DNA of 24,000 nt, taken from Aliivibrio sp. S3MY1. Its GTDB lineage: Bacteria > Pseudomonadota > Gammaproteobacteria > Enterobacterales > Vibrionaceae. This document shows positions 2,851 through 24,000 of this stretch, in pieces. The translations under genes were made by a program, and so were the position numbers. The notes beneath the pieces were generated by a model. The model saw only the letters and a program-made list of their open reading frames with translations. It was not told where the DNA came from and did no database searches. The stretch spans positions 130,733-154,732 of the forward strand of contig NZ_JARACO010000002.1 in NCBI RefSeq assembly GCF_028765575.1, in the 5' to 3' direction. Each line of letters begins with the position of its first letter. Within the stretch, counting starts at the first letter, position 1.

Positions 2851-5221
2851 TTTCTTTTAATAACCTAAGAGAATTAGAGACAACAATAATAGAGCTACCA
2901 GACATTCCTACAACCGCAATATAAGGAGCAACTAAGCCCATTACTGCTAACGGTAATATAATGGCATTATAGCCTAAAGCCCATGCTAAGTTTTCACGAA
3001 TGATTTTTCGTGTTTTCATCGCAAGTTCTCGCGCTTCAATAAGTCGAGAAAGATTATCCCCCAGAAGGATCATATCTGCAGAAGCTTTTGCCACATCAGT
3101 TCCTGAGCCCATCGCTATTGATAGATGTGCGCCAGCGAGGGTCGGGGCATCATTAATGCCGTCACCAACCATTAAACTTACTTCTTGTTTTGGTAATGAT
3201 TTTAAATAATCCAATTTGCCTTGTGGCGTTGCACCTGAAATAACGTCATCGATAGCTAAAGCATTAGCCACTTTTTCTACCGATGAACTACTGTCACCAG
3301 TTAGCATAGTCACTTTAATACCTAAATGGTGCAGTGATTGAATTAAGGCTTGGCTTTCTTGGCGAATTGGATCATCCAATACAAAAGCAGCAACCGCTTG
3401 TCCATTTTTAGACAACCACACTTGGTAATCTTGATTATTTTCTAATTCACAATCTTTCGCAGCAAATGCTTTATGACCAATCTTCCATTCATCGTTACCA
3501 ATAACCCCTTGTAAGCCTGATCCAATGATATTTTCAACGCTATCAAAGTGAGTTTCAGTTGAGTCTCTATATTGTGAGAAAGCACGCGCAATAGGGTGAT
3601 TAGCAAAGGATTCCATTTCAGCCGCGATTTTTTTTGCGGTTTCCTCTGATATATCTGTAAAAGAATGGACTTGAGTTAATCGAATGTTTCCTTCGGTTAA
3701 TGTTCCTGTTTTATCAATAACTAAACGGTTAACTTTACACAGTGTTTCTAAAACATGGCCACGACGAAGCATTAAACCAAGCTGTGCTAAACGAGAAGTT
3801 GAACAGGTGATTGCTGTTGGTGTTGCTAGTGATAACGCACAAGGACAAGTCGCAACAAGAACTGAAAGCATGATCCAAAAAGCATCGTCTGGTTTTGTTT
3901 CGTGCCAGTAAAACCAAGTAAATGCAGAGATGATTAGAATACCAGCCACAAAATAACGAGCGACCAGATCTGCAATTTCTGCAACTTTAGGTTTAGACAT
4001 TTGCGCTTCATCTTGAAGTTTTACAATGTTTGATATCAAAGAATCGGCTTTGGTTTTGGTTACTTTTATGGTTAAGTTACCATCGCCATTAATGGTGCCA
4101 GCGTAAACGGGGTCGGTTTCTTTTTTTGCTACCGGCATTGATTCACCAGTAAACATAGACTCATCAATCGCACTGTACCCTGAAATAACAATACCATCCG
4201 CAGGTAAGTGCTCTCCAGGAGGAACAATTACCGTATCATCTACATCAAGTGTTCGAGCAGGGACTTTCTTTCCTGATGTTAATGTTGCCATTACTGGAAT
4301 AAGCTTTAAGAGGTTTCCTGTTATTGCAGCGGCTTTTCGACGTGCGCGCATTTCAAGGAATCGACCGAGTAATAAAAAGAAGGTAAACATGGCAACAGAT
4401 TCAAAGAAAACTTCACCAGATTCAGTAACGGTTGCTACGACACTTGCGAAATAAGCAAATAACATAGCGATAGAAACAGGGACGTCCATTCCTAATGTTC
4501 TTGCTTTTAAACTGCGCCACGCATTCATATAAAATGGCAGTGCAGAGTAGAGCATAACCGGCGTTGCAAAAACTAAGCTTACATAACGTAGGTAATTTCT
4601 AAACTCGGCATCAAGATCACCAAAGACTTCAAGATATAAAGCAACGGCAAGCATCATGACTTGCATCGTTGCTAAACCGGCAACCCCTAAACGATATAAG
4701 TATTGCTTCATTGAGCGGTGATATTCTTCTTCTTGTTTGTCTGCTTCAAATGGGGCAGCTTTGTATCCCAATTGATGAATAAGAGTAAGAAGGGTACTTA
4801 ATTTAGTTTCTTCTGGGTTCCAACTCAGCAATGCTCGATGTGTAGAGGTGTTCACTTTTATTTGATGAATACCTTGTGCATTAGTAAGTTGCTTTTCGAT
4901 TAACCAAGCACATGCAGCACAAGAAACGCCATCGAGTGACAGCGTCACTTCTTTGAAGTTGTTATTGGTACGTATGAACTCTTTTTGAATCTCATTATGA
5001 TCATAATGAGCTAGGGCTTTTAGTTGTTCTGGGACTAAATCTGCTTTATCGGCAGGGGCCGTACGATATTGATAATAAGAAGATAGGCCATTTTCAACGA
5101 TAGTTTGCGCTACTGATTCACAGCCTGGGCAACACATATCACGGGTTTCACCTAAAATATCGATTTGAAAACTAGAGCCTGAAGGTACAGGCTCACTGCA
5201 GTGATAACAATCCTTCGACAT
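2843..5221 (-). CDS. ccoI: Copper-translocating P1B-type ATPase CcoI/FixI
   Basis: 792-aa ORF with DKTGTLT, a transmembrane CPC motif, GDGINDAP and N-terminal Cys-rich metal-binding motifs. It sits between ccoH and ccoS. Confidence 0.92.
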   Translation of the reverse strand: MSKDCYHCSEPVPSGSSFQIDILGETRDMCCPGCESVAQTIVENGLSSYYQYRTAPADKADLVPEQLKALAHYDHNEIQKEFIRTNNNFKEVTLSLDGVSCAACAWLIEKQLTNAQGIHQIKVNTSTHRALLSWNPEETKLSTLLTLIHQLGYKAAPFEADKQEEEYHRSMKQYLYRLGVAGLATMQVMMLAVALYLEVFGDLDAEFRNYLRYVSLVFATPVMLYSALPFYMNAWRSLKARTLGMDVPVSIAMLFAYFASVVATVTESGEVFFESVAMFTFFLLLGRFLEMRARRKAAAITGNLLKLIPVMATLTSGKKVPARTLDVDDTVIVPPGEHLPADGIVISGYSAIDESMFTGESMPVAKKETDPVYAGTINGDGNLTIKVTKTKADSLISNIVKLQDEAQMSKPKVAEIADLVARYFVAGILIISAFTWFYWHETKPDDAFWIMLSVLVATCPCALSLATPTAITCSTSRLAQLGLMLRRGHVLETLCKVNRLVIDKTGTLTEGNIRLTQVHSFTDISEETAKKIAAEMESFANHPIARAFSQYRDSTETHFDSVENIIGSGLQGVIGNDEWKIGHKAFAAKDCELENNQDYQVWLSKNGQAVAAFVLDDPIRQESQALIQSLHHLGIKVTMLTGDSSSSVEKVANALAIDDVISGATPQGKLDYLKSLPKQEVSLMVGDGINDAPTLAGAHLSIAMGSGTDVAKASADMILLGDNLSRLIEARELAMKTRKIIRENLAWALGYNAIILPLAVMGLVAPYIAVVGMSGSSIIVVSNSLRLLKENG
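4936..4948. other. matS site (MatP-binding palindrome), exact match to the consensus
   Basis: GTGACAGCGTCAC matches GTGACRNYGTCAC at all 13 positions. It lies inside the ccoI coding sequence, 5.3 kb from dif. Confidence 0.7.
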
Positions 5222-9983: not shown

Positions 9984-9996
9984 GTTACAGTGTAAC
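9984..9996. other. matS-like palindrome (variant arms), left flank of dif
   Basis: GTTACAGTGTAAC, embedded in the perfect 15-bp palindrome AGTTACAGTGTAACT (9983..9997). It ends 193 bp before dif. Confidence 0.5.
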
Positions 9997-10189: not shown

Positions 10190-10217
10190 ATTTAACATAA
10201 TATACATAATGCGCACT
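10190..10217 (-). other. dif: dif, the XerC/XerD chromosome dimer resolution site
   Basis: The minus strand reads AGTGCGCATTA-TGTATA-TTATGTTAAAT. It matches 26 of 28 positions of E. coli dif (GGTGCGCATAATGTATATTATGTTAAAT) and 27 of 28 of V. cholerae dif1 as I recall it. Confidence 0.9.
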
Positions 10218-10345: not shown

Positions 10346-10358
10346 GTTACCTTGTCAC
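10346..10358. other. matS-like palindrome (one variant arm), right flank of dif
   Basis: GTTACCTTGTCAC, starting 128 bp after dif and lying 50 bp upstream of the lipoprotein gene. Confidence 0.45.
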
Positions 10359-11010: not shown

Positions 11011-11043
11011 CTACATGAGCTGTTACTTTAATAGCTCATGTAG
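11011..11043. terminator. Hairpin between the convergent lipoprotein and matP genes (overlaps the matP stop)
   Basis: Perfect 11-bp stem ctacatgagct / agctcatgtag with an 11-nt loop. The flanking T-tracts are weak. Confidence 0.45.
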
Positions 11044-11469
11044 ATCTGCTTTAAGTGATGACACTGTTTGACTCGCCTTTTCTGTTCTCGAGGCCTCACT
11101 TAATAAATACTCAATCGTATCTGATAGTGTTGAGTCTAAATCCTGTGCTCTAAGAGAAAGCTTTTCCCACACACGATAATCTAAGTCGATTGATTTCTTA
11201 CGCGTATGTTCTTGTTCTGCATTAAAGTGACGCTTTCTTTTCGCTCGAATTGCTTGCTTTAGCTTATTCTCTAAATCAGGATTCATATGTTTTTGGATCC
11301 ATTCGAGTGATTTTACCGGCTCATGCTCTAGTTTTAAGAACTCATTAACCTGTTGTTGTTGTTCACTAGAATCGATATAACACGTAATTGATCCCCCCAT
11401 ACGATGCTTATTAAATAAATACATCCATTTCCAACCGGCTTCTAGATTTTCAAGTTGTTGGTATTTCAT
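11023..11469 (-). CDS. matP: Macrodomain Ter organiser protein MatP
   Basis: MKYQQLENLEAGWKW..., RAKRKRHFNAEQEHTRKKSIDL... is colinear with E. coli MatP. The track ORF starts 3 codons earlier at a GTG; I prefer the ATG at 11469. Confidence 0.93.
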   Translation of the reverse strand: MKYQQLENLEAGWKWMYLFNKHRMGGSITCYIDSSEQQQQVNEFLKLEHEPVKSLEWIQKHMNPDLENKLKQAIRAKRKRHFNAEQEHTRKKSIDLDYRVWEKLSLRAQDLDSTLSDTIEYLLSEASRTEKASQTVSSLKADLHELLK

Positions 11470-11502
11470 ATAACGCACTCATATTAAAGAGAATAAATTT
11501 GA

Positions 11503-11515
11503 GTGACAGTGTAAC
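11503..11515. other. matS-like palindrome in the matP promoter region
   Basis: GTGACAGTGTAAC, 34 bp upstream of the matP ATG. Its 15-mer AGTGACAGTGTAACT differs by one base from the site at 9983..9997. Confidence 0.55.
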
Positions 11516-11536
11516 TCTAGTTTGCATTATCATCAA
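11508..11536 (-). promoter_or_regulatory. Candidate sigma70 promoter of matP
   Basis: The minus strand reads TTGATG, 17 nt, TACACT. The -10 hexamer lies inside the matS-like site. Confidence 0.35.
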
Positions 11537-11649
11537 CATTCTTCGTGGATAATGAGATTAAGATCTAATTGGTAATGTAACTACTGAAAAATCAGACGTG
11601 TGTAGTTATGTCATGTATAATCAGTTTTATTTTTTATCAATAAGTAAGC

Positions 11650-13317
11650 ATGCAGTTAGACACGCCATTTCTAATCGAACCTCAGTACGATCATATTCAA
11701 GATGCCTTGGATCAATCTCACTCAATCGACGCACAATCCCCCTATTCTCTGCAGCCAAAATTGACTCAAGCTTTAGAGGTTTTCTCTCATATAAATGGCA
11801 TTAATATACTGCAAATCAATGCGCTAGATAATCACGTTTATCGTGAATATATCGCAAACTGGTTATGCTTAAACACATCAAATCGCTTAGCTAATGACGA
11901 AATGGTCCCTGTTGTGGTTATTGAAAGTGCCTCTGAAGCAGAGCTTTTCGGTGTTTATCATAATAAAAGTGATATTCTTGAACATGGCTTATTACAAAAA
12001 GCCAATGGTGGTTTTCTAATTATTTCACCAAGTCTCCTACTGGCAAATCCACACTTTTGGCCAAGACTTAAAAGTTTATTACAAGGTCACCCGATAACAA
12101 TTTCAGCAAGTGATTCAAAGTCACCAATGCCGCATACGCACCGTTTAATGGTTGATGTTAAATTAGTTATCGTTAGTGATCGTGCTTTACTTGGGGAAAT
12201 CGAACAATTAGAGCCCGACTTGCTCGCTGGCATGTCAATGTTTGCAGAATATGAGTTTGATACCACATTAGAAAGTGACACGGTAACTGACTACATAAAA
12301 CTGATTAACTCACTATCTATTAAGAATAAACACTTACCGCTACAAAATGGTTCTGCTTTATTACCGTTACTCAAAGCAGGCGCAAGAGAATGTGAAGATC
12401 AAACTCGACTTAACTTGTGTTTATTATGGTTAAACTCTATTTTAGCTCATGCTTCTTTGGCTTCACTGTCAAAAGAATATATTACTGCTGATGATTTTAA
12501 CCAATCATTTAAAACCAAGTATCATATTGAATCCTATTTACCATCGAGAGCCCTAGATGATATTTTAGAGCAAAATATATTCATTGAAACTCAAGGTGAA
12601 CAAATTGGTCAAATCAATGGGTTAACTGTTGTCTCTGTACCCGGACACCCTATTTCTTACGGTGAACCTTCTCGAATTACCTGTGTCGTACATGCGGGTG
12701 ATGGTGAATTATCAGATGTAGAACGCAAAGTAGAATTAGGTGGCGATCTTCATGCTAAAGGCATGTTGATAATGCAAGCTTATATACTTAGCCAGTTAAA
12801 AACTCATGAACCACTTCCTTTTACGGCCTCGATGGTATTTGAACAATCTTACTGTGAAGTTGATGGTGACAGTGCAAGTTTAGCTGAGCTGTGTGCATTT
12901 TTAAGTGCCCTTGCGATAAAACCAATTAATCAAAGTTTGGCAATTACTGGTTCTGTCGATCAGTTCGGTATGATTCAACCAATTGGCGGCGTAAACGAAA
13001 AAATTGAAGCCTTCTTCCAGCTGTGTGAAAAACGCGGGTTAACTGGTGAGCAAGGTGTTATTATCCCAAAAACAAACGGAATTAATCTTGTACTTTCCGA
13101 TGAGGTAATTCAAGCAGTTAATGAAAAACAGTTTACTATTCATCTTGTTAGTCATGTTGAAGAAGCTGTAGAATTATTAACAGGATTACCATTGCAATCT
13201 GAAGAGCACGAATCGATTTTCTCTTTAATTGCTCAACATATAGAAGATGTTGAACATAATCCGAACCAGTGTTCCGCTTTATTCTGTCGTATTAAGAACT
13301 GGTTTAACCAGCGCTGA
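11650..13317 (+). CDS. ycbZ: Lon-like protease homolog (YcbZ/LonH type; C-terminal Lon S16 protease domain)
   Basis: 555-aa ORF whose C-terminal half is colinear with E. coli YcbZ (GEPSRITCVVH, ERKVELGG..HAKG, FEQSY.EVDGDSAS.AELCA, ITGSVDQFG..QPIGGVNEKIE). It lies between matP and fabA as in E. coli. Confidence 0.85.
   Translation: MQLDTPFLIEPQYDHIQDALDQSHSIDAQSPYSLQPKLTQALEVFSHINGINILQINALDNHVYREYIANWLCLNTSNRLANDEMVPVVVIESASEAELFGVYHNKSDILEHGLLQKANGGFLIISPSLLLANPHFWPRLKSLLQGHPITISASDSKSPMPHTHRLMVDVKLVIVSDRALLGEIEQLEPDLLAGMSMFAEYEFDTTLESDTVTDYIKLINSLSIKNKHLPLQNGSALLPLLKAGARECEDQTRLNLCLLWLNSILAHASLASLSKEYITADDFNQSFKTKYHIESYLPSRALDDILEQNIFIETQGEQIGQINGLTVVSVPGHPISYGEPSRITCVVHAGDGELSDVERKVELGGDLHAKGMLIMQAYILSQLKTHEPLPFTASMVFEQSYCEVDGDSASLAELCAFLSALAIKPINQSLAITGSVDQFGMIQPIGGVNEKIEAFFQLCEKRGLTGEQGVIIPKTNGINLVLSDEVIQAVNEKQFTIHLVSHVEEAVELLTGLPLQSEEHESIFSLIAQHIEDVEHNPNQCSALFCRIKNWFNQR
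12275..12287. other. matS-like palindrome (one variant arm, non-RNY centre)
   Basis: GTGACACGGTAAC, inside the ycbZ-like coding sequence. Confidence 0.4.
13297..13313. promoter_or_regulatory. FadR-box-like palindrome upstream of the fabA promoter
   Basis: AACTGGTTTAACCAGCG contains the perfect CTGGTT-T-AACCAG palindrome; compare the FadR operator core CTGGT-N3-ACCAG. It overlaps the last codons of the ycbZ-like gene. Confidence 0.45.
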
Positions 13318-18083: not shown

Positions 18084-18306
18084 TGTCTTCTAACCAATTC
18101 TTTAATTGCGATATATTGAATGGCCAATTGAGCTCAGATAAGCCATTGGCCACCACAGGTATTGTGACACCGTAACGAGAGAAAAGCTCATCGTTGAACG
18201 CTATGTCTACCGTGTCTACTTTTTCGATATCTACACCCACCTCCACAAGCAAGTCAAACGCTTGCTCGCAAAGATGGCAGCCTTCCGTGCTATAGAGAGT
18301 AATCAT
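18064..18306 (-). CDS. Glutaredoxin-like small thioredoxin-fold protein (DUF836 type)
   Basis: 80-aa ORF with a CxxC motif (EGCHLCE) near the N-terminus. Its 3' end overlaps the uup start by 20 nt. Confidence 0.7.
   Translation of the reverse strand: MITLYSTEGCHLCEQAFDLLVEVGVDIEKVDTVDIAFNDELFSRYGVTIPVVANGLSELNWPFNISQLKNWLEDNGITYN
18164..18176. other. matS-like palindrome (one variant arm)
   Basis: GTGACACCGTAAC, inside the glutaredoxin-like coding sequence. Confidence 0.5.
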
Positions 18307-22967: not shown

Positions 22968-24000
22968 CTATTGTTTTGACGTACAGCTTAAGTTTAGTAA
23001 CGTAAGTTCTCTTAATGCTACCGAGAATTTAGCAAACTCATGGACTGAACCTACCTTAAATTCATTCAAGATATTATCCCAACGTCCTACTGATGTAGCA
23101 TTCTTTTCACACCACTCTTCAATGGCCTTTTCTACTGACTCGGTATCTTTGTACTCAGCAAGCACTAATTGAGTCAGTTGACGTTGCTGCCAATCTAAGT
23201 CTTCACGAAAAGAAGCACGAGCAAGCGCTTGCCAATGGTTATCAACACCTTGGTTATTAATCTGTTTTAAGAACCAATGCAGAGATAACTTATCACCCAG
23301 AACATAGTATAAACGCGCCGTCGTTGAAACCGGTTGCTTCATATCTACCGCAACAGCTGAAATGTCCATTGCAGAGTACAAGCTACTTAGCCGAGCAAGA
23401 ACATTACCTAGCTCACAAGGTACACCCATTTCTAGATAGTGATTAGCTTGTTCAATATGCTCAACTACTTCATCGTTAACTAAGTAACTATCAAGGTTAT
23501 CTTTAATCTCATAAACTGCAGGCTTATATTTTTCAATAAGCTCCTGAATTGACATATTTTGTGAGCCATTACGTAATAACCAACGAGTCACTCGACGAAT
23601 GGTTCTACGCATTGCAAATAATGCTTCATACTGAGCCTCTGTCGTTGAGATATTATCGAGATTACGGATCTGTTTAAATAAGTCACCAAAATCAAAAATA
23701 GCTCGAGTCGCTGAATACGCATTGGCTATATCAGTGACGGTGTAACCTGTTTCTTCTTGCAAACGAGTGATGAAGTTACAACCCATCTCATTAACCATCT
23801 GATTTGCTAAACAAGTCGCGATGATTTCTGAGCGTAGAGGATGATTATCCATTTCTGCTTTATAGTTACGTTGTAACTCTGTTGGGAAGTAAGTCGTCAG
23901 TAAATCAGCATGGTATGGATTATGTGCAATCTCATCACAGGCTAACTCATCCTTTAGAACCATTTTTCCATAAGCCACAAGAACTGAAAGCTCTGGACGA
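22968..24000 (-). CDS. NAD-specific glutamate dehydrogenase (large Bac_GDH type), C-terminal part; continues beyond the window
   Basis: The frame stays open past the track's GTG start to the window edge (...RPELSVLVAYGKMVLKDEL...). The C-terminal region resembles the ~1600-aa NAD-GDH family. Confidence 0.8.
   Translation of the reverse strand, partial: RPELSVLVAYGKMVLKDELACDEIAHNPYHADLLTTYFPTELQRNYKAEMDNHPLRSEIIATCLANQMVNEMGCNFITRLQEETGYTVTDIANAYSATRAIFDFGDLFKQIRNLDNISTTEAQYEALFAMRRTIRRVTRWLLRNGSQNMSIQELIEKYKPAVYEIKDNLDSYLVNDEVVEHIEQANHYLEMGVPCELGNVLARLSSLYSAMDISAVAVDMKQPVSTTARLYYVLGDKLSLHWFLKQINNQGVDNHWQALARASFREDLDWQQRQLTQLVLAEYKDTESVEKAIEEWCEKNATSVGRWDNILNEFKVGSVHEFAKFSVALRELTLLNLSCTSKQ
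23734..23746. other. matS-like palindrome (one variant arm)
   Basis: GTGACGGTGTAAC, inside the NAD-GDH coding sequence. Confidence 0.5.
23865..23877. other. matS-like palindrome (both arms variant)
   Basis: GTTACGTTGTAAC, inside the NAD-GDH coding sequence, 119 bp from the previous site. Confidence 0.4.

Follow-up and report, generated by a model that had tools for sequence, protein, structure and literature searches.

The DNA analysed here is a single stretch of 24 000 nucleotides from an Aliivibrio (referred to throughout as the window) in which matP, the gene for the protein that binds matS sites and organizes the terminus end of the chromosome, lies close to dif and is preceded by a matS-like palindrome. 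This arrangement raises the question of whether the palindrome is one more of the structural matS sites of the terminus or an operator through which MatP acts on its own gene. The features on which the analysis draws, in the window and in genomes beyond the Vibrionaceae, are collected in Table 1.

The identity of the gene is clear from its product. The MatP of the window is 100% identical to the MatP of Aliivibrio sp. S3MY1, matches the Pfam families MatP (E = 3e-42) and MatP_C (E = 7e-30) as well as the structures 7NYW (E = 4.5e-53), 3VEA and 4D8J, and contains the ribbon–helix–helix domain PF17414. The ribbon–helix–helix fold is typical of autorepressors. A spacer of 180 nt separates matP from the ycbZ-like gene, which is transcribed divergently and is followed by fabA; a DUF1439 lipoprotein gene lies between matP and dif. 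The divergent ycbZ–matP arrangement is kept in Vibrionaceae, enterics and Pasteurellaceae. An extended −10 element (TGTATAAT) at window positions 11613–11621, about 30 nt before the ycbZ ATG, probably marks the promoter of that gene; with about 100 nt between this element and the palindrome, ycbZ is probably outside the control of the proposed operator.

Table 1. Positions of matP, dif, matS-like sites and predicted promoter elements in the window, and of the palindromes found upstream of matP in other genomes (position of the site relative to the matP ATG).
Source	Feature	Position	Strand	Sequence	Basis or remark
Window	dif (XerCD chromosome dimer resolution site)	10190..10217	−	AGTGCGCATTATGTATATTATGTTAAAT	Differs from E. 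coli dif at 2 positions; chance expectation 0
Window	matS, perfect consensus	4936..4948		GTGACAGCGTCAC	Consensus match
Window	matS-like site	9984..9996		GTTACAGTGTAAC	194 bp from dif, side away from matP
Window	matS-like site	10346..10358		GTTACCTTGTCAC	129 bp from dif, matP side
Window	matP coding sequence	11023..11469	−		148 aa plus stop codon; Pfam and PDB matches
Window	Predicted matP transcription start zone	11499..11502	−		About 7–8 nt 3′ of the −10; standard sigma-70 geometry
Window	matS-like 13-bp palindrome, proposed MatP operator	11503..11515	−	GTTACACTGTCAC on matP strand, GTGACAGTGTAAC on + strand
Window	Predicted −10 hexamer	11508..11513	−	TACACT	Within palindrome; putative promoter element
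Window	Predicted −35 hexamer	11531..11536	−	TTGATG	TTG kept across the Vibrionaceae alignment
Window	ycbZ-like gene, divergent from matP	11650..13317	+		Lon-like protease; AAA_32 and Lon_C domains (Pfam)
Window	matS-like site	12275..12287		GTGACACGGTAAC	Within ycbZ coding sequence
Window	matS-like site	18164..18176		GTGACACCGTAAC
Window	matS-like site	23734..23746		GTGACGGTGTAAC
Window	matS-like site	23865..23877		GTTACGTTGTAAC
E. coli MG1655	Candidate site	−25		GTTACACGGTAAC
Enteric L083 (GCA_029782595.1)	Palindrome	−25		GTTACACGGTCAC
Hafnia alvei and a relative	Palindrome	−29		GTTACCGTGTCAC	True ATG 23 nt inside called ORF
Pasteurella multocida	Palindrome	−35		GTGACCACGTAAC
Rodentibacter	Palindrome	−27		GTTACCACGTCAC
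Lonepinella	Palindrome	−29		GTTACCACGTCAC
Necropsobacter	Palindrome	−31		GTTACAATGTCAC
Pasteurellaceae metagenome contig L096	Palindrome	−32		GTTACCACGTCAC

The plus-strand sequence of the palindrome departs from the E. coli matS consensus GTGACRNYGTCAC at a single base (A in place of C at position 11) and fits the matS class. Between the palindrome and the matP ATG (11469, minus strand) there are 33 nt, the nearest base of the site being at −34, and this is the distance at which the first-pass annotation had placed it. Read along the matP strand, TTGATG (11536–11531) is followed by 17 nt, TACACT (11513–11508) and then GTCAC; the two hexamers and their spacing have the layout of a sigma-70 promoter (a −35 and a −10 element with a spacer of 16–18 nt), and the −10 hexamer is contained in the palindrome, both as annotated previously. 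The predicted start zone would leave matP with roughly 30 nt of 5′ UTR. The matP promoter was not among the matches of a generic promoter scan of the window because TACACT fits TATAAT at three of six bases, which is under the threshold of the scan; the support for this predicted promoter is comparative.

The surroundings of matP in the window are those of a replication terminus. The dif site, the same as that of A. fischeri ES114 (locus L005), is separated from the matP stop codon by 806 bp, in agreement with the earlier estimate of about 0.8 kb, and from the palindrome by 1.3 kb. Four sites with no more than one mismatch to the matS consensus were found in the window (0.06 expected), and the relaxed class GTKACNNNGTMAC was represented by eight sites in the 24 kb (0.07 expected, an enrichment of about 100-fold), which identifies the window as a matS-dense part of the terminus core. 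Across the gammaproteobacteria the density of matS is highest at dif, and A. fischeri has 12.5 matS per 100 kb (PMC10945525). The finding of one matS in the 180-nt matP–ycbZ spacer is only mildly unlikely on the data of the window alone. Since the window by itself is not compelling, a comparative test was needed, and the comparative data proved decisive.

For this comparison, one scan of species-representative genomes provided 80 matP loci from the genera Aliivibrio, Vibrio, Photobacterium, Enterovibrio, Grimontia and Salinivibrio, or 81 species together with the window; the sequences were distinct in 77 of the 80 loci. The 81 matP upstream sequences were aligned without gaps and anchored on the motif. 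Exactly one GTKACNNNGTMAC site was present within 250 nt upstream of matP in every one of the 80 loci, at −36 to −60, and its orientation on the matP strand, GTTAC-RYT-GT(C/A)AC, was constant in 81/81. Other matS-like sites occurred in these loci about once per 6.9 kb; for a promoter window of 41 nt approximately 0.006 matS-like sites were expected, and 80/80 were observed. Mean pairwise identity was 95% in the motif, 36% in the spacer and 31% in the 24 nt downstream; the flanks are therefore saturated with changes and the species can be taken as effectively independent observations. As comparisons of sequences go, the signal is unusually clean (81/81 species, saturated flanks).

Strong information was confined to two blocks of the alignment, the TTG and the 13-mer of the palindrome, and it is these sole conserved upstream blocks that bear out the promoter as first read. 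The bases of the TTG, which lies at −21 to −19 from the start of the motif, were kept in 81, 79 and 78 of the 81 sequences. In all 81 species exactly 17 nt stand between the −35 hexamer and the T-A-C-R-C-T formed by motif bases 3–8, so that throughout the Vibrionaceae the MatP-type palindrome covers the predicted core promoter at its −10. Ten positions of the 13-mer are invariant, and the T, A and final T of TACRCT are invariant in 81/81. The upstream half-site was GTTAC in every species and the consensus GTGAC in none; the T that stands for the G of the consensus is also where the predicted −10 begins, and this explains why the T variant is fixed. Beyond the −10 comes the downstream half, GT(C/A)AC, which has four of five positions invariant and carries C (71 sequences) or A (ten) in the middle; its invariance is explained by dyad symmetry, as the requirements of sigma-70 do not account for it. 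These patterns point to a dual-purpose element that would serve as promoter and binding site at once. The alternative that the palindrome acts mainly as the −35 element of a divergent ycbZ promoter was rejected, as the matching −10 region is not conserved.

The sample beyond the Vibrionaceae consisted of four enteric loci, eight from Pasteurellaceae and one from an endosymbiont; a search with E. coli MatP had returned E. coli and Shigella only and a profile of distant MatPs mostly Pasteurellaceae, so that Yersinia, Serratia, Klebsiella, Proteus, Aeromonas/Aeromonadales and the Shewanella-like MatP relatives lie outside its scope. Palindromes were found upstream of matP in both groups (Table 1). 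In Hafnia, its relative, Pasteurella, Rodentibacter, Lonepinella and Necropsobacter the palindrome is the sole zero-mismatch site in each 3.4-kb locus; in the E. coli candidate at NC_000913.3 1,018,460–1,018,472 both half-sites are variant and the spacer, ACG, is non-RNY. All site-bearing lineages outside the Vibrionaceae have a −10-like hexamer (TATTCT, TATCCT, TATATT, TACACT or TATAGT) 6–8 nt upstream of the palindrome, which would place the palindrome at about +1 to +13 in enterics and Pasteurellaceae.

These findings bear on the contrast with E. coli drawn in the first-pass annotation. That matP is remote from the terminus in E. coli holds (the matP–dif distance in MG1655 is 572 kb), but the matS-like palindrome at E. 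coli matP had been missed. Nor is the feature peculiar to genomes in which matP adjoins dif, since it also occurs in E. coli, other enterics and several Pasteurellaceae. Because the palindrome is found at matP even away from dif, it is linked to the gene and not to the terminus; its occurrence at matP whether dif is near or far speaks against a Ter site with a purely structural role. From the loci compared, the palindrome seems to have accompanied matP across three orders, with lineage-specific loss. No matS-like palindrome was found upstream of matP in Actinobacillus pleuropneumoniae (L084), Glaesserella parasuis (L086) and Muribacter muris (L087), nor in the region upstream of matP in the endosymbiont Ca. 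Profftia (L088), and it must be dispensable in the lineages that lack it. The absence in the Actinobacillus clade looks like a lineage-specific loss of the operator. The ycbZ–matP spacer of L084, L086 and L087 is just 76–84 nt or so in length and contains CGCTATACT.

Some of the gene calls in this sample are questionable. In L083 (positions 1335–1500) a tandem duplication takes in the promoter of matP together with the 5′ portion of its coding sequence, so that the palindrome is present twice (at −166 and −25) and the called MatP, of 197 aa, contains an internal repeat; an error of assembly may lie behind the duplication. In L082, L093 and L096 matP was called from an upstream GTG or ATG, giving proteins of 159 or 177 aa, and in the Hafnia-type loci L082 and L093 the called GTG start is inside the palindrome. 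The conserved MKYQ start lies 23–89 nt downstream of the called start in these three loci and the annotated N-terminal extensions are therefore probably wrong.

Evidence for binding in vivo comes from V. cholerae N16961, in which MatP was mapped by ChIP-seq (Espinosa et al., 2024; PMC11564523; preprint bioRxiv 10.1101/2024.02.08.578905). The list of bound sites (Supplementary Data 1 of the preprint, bioRxiv 10.1101/2024.02.08.578905) includes ChrI 1503225, CAGACAGTGG-GTTACGCTGTCAC-TGTATAACAA, with an MCAST score of 10.30. The exact 33-mer of this entry was located in one metagenome contig, where 26 nt separate it from the matP ATG downstream, the ORF on its 3′ side starting with MKYQQLENLECGWKWQY, which is MatP; the same contig has TTGCAA 17 nt upstream of TACGCT. 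No match to the V. cholerae 33-mer or matP region was found in viral contigs, nor in plasmids when the V. mimicus matP region was used as the query. The proposal of a MatP site at the promoter of its own gene is supported by binding at the orthologous V. cholerae site. The main text of PMC11564523 mentions neither the matP promoter nor autoregulation. Half-sites GTTAC and/or GTAAC occur among the V. cholerae bound sites, for example in the doubly variant GTTACGCGGTAAC on ChrII (bioRxiv 10.1101/2024.02.08.578905), and this makes the variants of E. coli and Aliivibrio credible targets. The V. cholerae sequence was also considered as a LexA box, a reading rejected because the required flanking bases are not conserved in other species.

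Taken together, it is likely that the palindrome at 11503–11515 is a genuine matS which doubles as the matP operator, and that MatP represses its own transcription through it. Occupancy of the operator is taken from the ChIP-seq of the V. cholerae orthologue; the identity of the promoter, its transcription start, the repression and the coupling to titration are inferred. The Vibrionaceae promoter would consist of TTGnnn, 17 nt and TACRCT, with the −10 incorporated in the palindrome's upstream half, and a MatP dimer on the operator would cover roughly −14 to −2 and shut out RNA polymerase. With RNA polymerase excluded in this manner, matP transcription would drop as free MatP rises (negative autoregulation). 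In enterics and Pasteurella-type Pasteurellaceae, the palindrome at about +1 to +13 would occupy another repressing position, over the start site. Dozens of other matS compete for MatP, so that the operator would read the MatP left over; it would probably sense what remains once these other sites have been filled, and the supply of MatP would thereby be matched to the number of matS sites. Of the autoregulation suggested in the first-pass annotation, the register with the promoter (kept in 81 species) and the binding of the orthologue stand, while repression itself is deduced from geometry.

The main alternative is that the palindrome is an ordinary structural matS, with a role in Ter organization and MukBEF exclusion, which happens to lie in the matP–ycbZ spacer and has no effect on transcription. 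The eight matS-like sites of the window, the density maximum at dif across the gammaproteobacteria and the 12.5 sites per 100 kb of A. fischeri (PMC10945525) speak for it; as matP of the Vibrionaceae lies where matS sites are densest on the chromosome, a structural role could still be argued from those genomes alone. A passage of a 2011 review (PMC3116907, citing Mercier 2008) further states that MatP binds the Ter macrodomain exclusively and that Ter gene expression is unaffected by it. A matP deletion cannot report on the matP promoter, however, and autoregulation would have escaped notice. A structural site needs no promoter register, yet the 17-nt spacing to the TTG and the orientation are constant in 81/81; the site is also found with matP in E. 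coli, Hafnia and Pasteurellaceae, away from dif; and any protein that covers −14 to −2 of a promoter in use should hinder RNA polymerase, whatever else it does. We therefore consider a purely structural site unlikely.

A further possibility is that MatP binds here for a regulatory purpose other than simple steady-state autorepression. In one version the occupancy by MatP would change as the terminus is replicated and thereby set the timing of matP expression in the cell cycle; in others the site would be looped or bridged to those at 10346 or 12275, or would control ycbZ. Consistent with such roles, matS-like sites lie 0.8–1.2 kb away on either side, the site inside ycbZ is positionally kept in many genera, MatP can bridge matS sites according to work cited in a passage of PMC4177673, and a −35 reading is possible for GTGACA on the plus strand, with CATTAT 16 nt downstream. 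The plus-strand match is not conserved, however (the columns upstream of the motif carry about 1 bit or less), ycbZ has the better −10 of its own described above, and the positions of the flanking sites vary between genera. An interpretation of this kind is accordingly rather improbable.

Two other explanations have very little probability. The first, that the conserved block serves purely as promoter (−10 plus discriminator), with a coincidental likeness to matS and no binding of MatP, agrees with the invariance of the T, A and final T of TACRCT, the key −10 positions, but leaves unexplained the nearly invariant dyad half outside the −10, the ChIP-seq peak at the V. cholerae orthologous site and the presence in enterics and Pasteurellaceae of a palindrome separate from the −10-like hexamer. 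The second, just as improbable, is that another dimeric transcription factor reads GTTAC-N3-GTMAC and regulates matP; palindromic operators are common and nothing specific favours it, and against it the sequence belongs among the MatP-bound motifs defined by experiment, its orthologue is bound by MatP in vivo and the motif class is enriched about 100-fold in the terminus window, as expected of MatP sites.

The matS-like sites around dif and matP show some regularities of their own. In the window dif is bracketed by the sites at 9984–9996 and 10346–10358, and GTGACAAGGTAAC (the reverse complement of GTTACCTTGTCAC) keeps a position about 141–144 nt before dif in Aliivibrio loci L002–L004. A matS-like site inside ycbZ is present in approximately 30 of the 80 loci, at positions that are steady within genera and vary between them: relative to the matP ATG it lies at −819/−821 in L002 and L005, equivalent to the window site at 12275–12287, at −491 in many Vibrio and at about −588 in Enterovibrio and Grimontia. 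Two identical MatP-bound sites in V. cholerae, ChrI 1510109 and 1514960, starred in the list as repeat-borne, are separated from each other by 4.85 kb and from the site at the matP promoter by 7–12 kb; both are probably carried by tandem elements that have inserted at dif1, in which case dif-inserting mobile elements would bring their own matS.

A dif site no more than 1.5 kb downstream of matP, in constant orientation, was found in 14 of the 80 Vibrionaceae loci (L002–L005, L013, L028, L045, L055, L058, L059, L061, L068, L072 and L076), which span the four genera Aliivibrio, Vibrio, Grimontia and Salinivibrio. The adjacency of matP and dif is a property of several Vibrionaceae genera and no peculiarity of this genome. 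This distribution suggests an ancestral adjacency that was perhaps broken elsewhere by insertions, for which dif-integrating phage-like elements may be one candidate. It is speculation that matP, by lying beside dif, has its dosage coupled to replication of the terminus.

Compared with canonical matS (E. coli Ter; V. cholerae TerI and TerII), the palindrome belongs to the same class of 13-bp dyads and in the window shares with them a location in the terminus beside dif, with the cognate MatP encoded next to it. Canonical sites have structural roles (Ter organization, MukBEF exclusion and ZapB anchoring) and, according to the passage of the 2011 review, no effect on transcription (PMC3116907). 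The palindrome at matP differs from them in its promoter-locked register and in that it stays with matP even 572 kb from dif.

Autoregulation of the proposed kind has precedents. In E. coli Tus represses tus by means of TerB, which overlaps the tus promoter, as has been known from the literature since about 1991. There too the gene of a terminus-specific DNA-binding protein adjoins a target site of its product that lies over its own promoter; the fold, the site and the function (replication fork arrest as opposed to macrodomain organization) are different. Tus has about ten sites and MatP dozens, so that titration would matter more for MatP. The ribbon–helix–helix autorepressors (Arc, Mnt, CopG, MetJ, ParG and omega) likewise place a dimeric domain on a short dyad over their own core promoter. 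MatP differs from these in its additional N-terminal four-helix bundle and C-terminal coiled coil, and in that its main known role is the organization of the chromosome via many dispersed sites. DnaA represses its own promoter and is titrated by chromosomal DnaA boxes and datA. The likeness to DnaA lies in the combination of own-promoter repression with competing chromosomal sites, so that synthesis follows the number of sites; for MatP the coupling to titration is a proposal, and no nucleotide switch takes part.

A full-text literature search, the coverage of which stopped short of Mercier 2008 and of E. coli ChIP peaks given as figures only, returned no report of MatP autoregulation or of matP expression, and nothing relevant on matS together with ycbZ. 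If the likely reading holds, operator-mediated negative autoregulation would be newly assigned to an architectural chromosome protein. More tentatively, and with the balance somewhat against it, MatP may be a titration-coupled homeostat of ancient origin, with matP transcribed until the competing chromosomal matS have been filled. The suboptimal GTTAC, forced by the first base of the −10, would then tune the switching threshold in the Vibrionaceae, and the circuit would be common to Vibrionales, Enterobacterales and part of the Pasteurellales. Were this so, the supply of MatP would track the copy number of matS, and hence the replication state of the terminus, and MatP could no longer be regarded as lacking a role in transcription.

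An operator conserved at the matP promoter would be the first regulatory target of MatP, which has otherwise been treated as purely architectural. It would have a bearing on the processes that depend on MatP, namely the timing of terminus segregation, the exclusion of MukBEF from Ter and the anchoring of the terminus to the division machinery, and the addition or deletion of matS arrays, or the tagging of matP at its native locus, may shift MatP levels via the autoregulatory loop.
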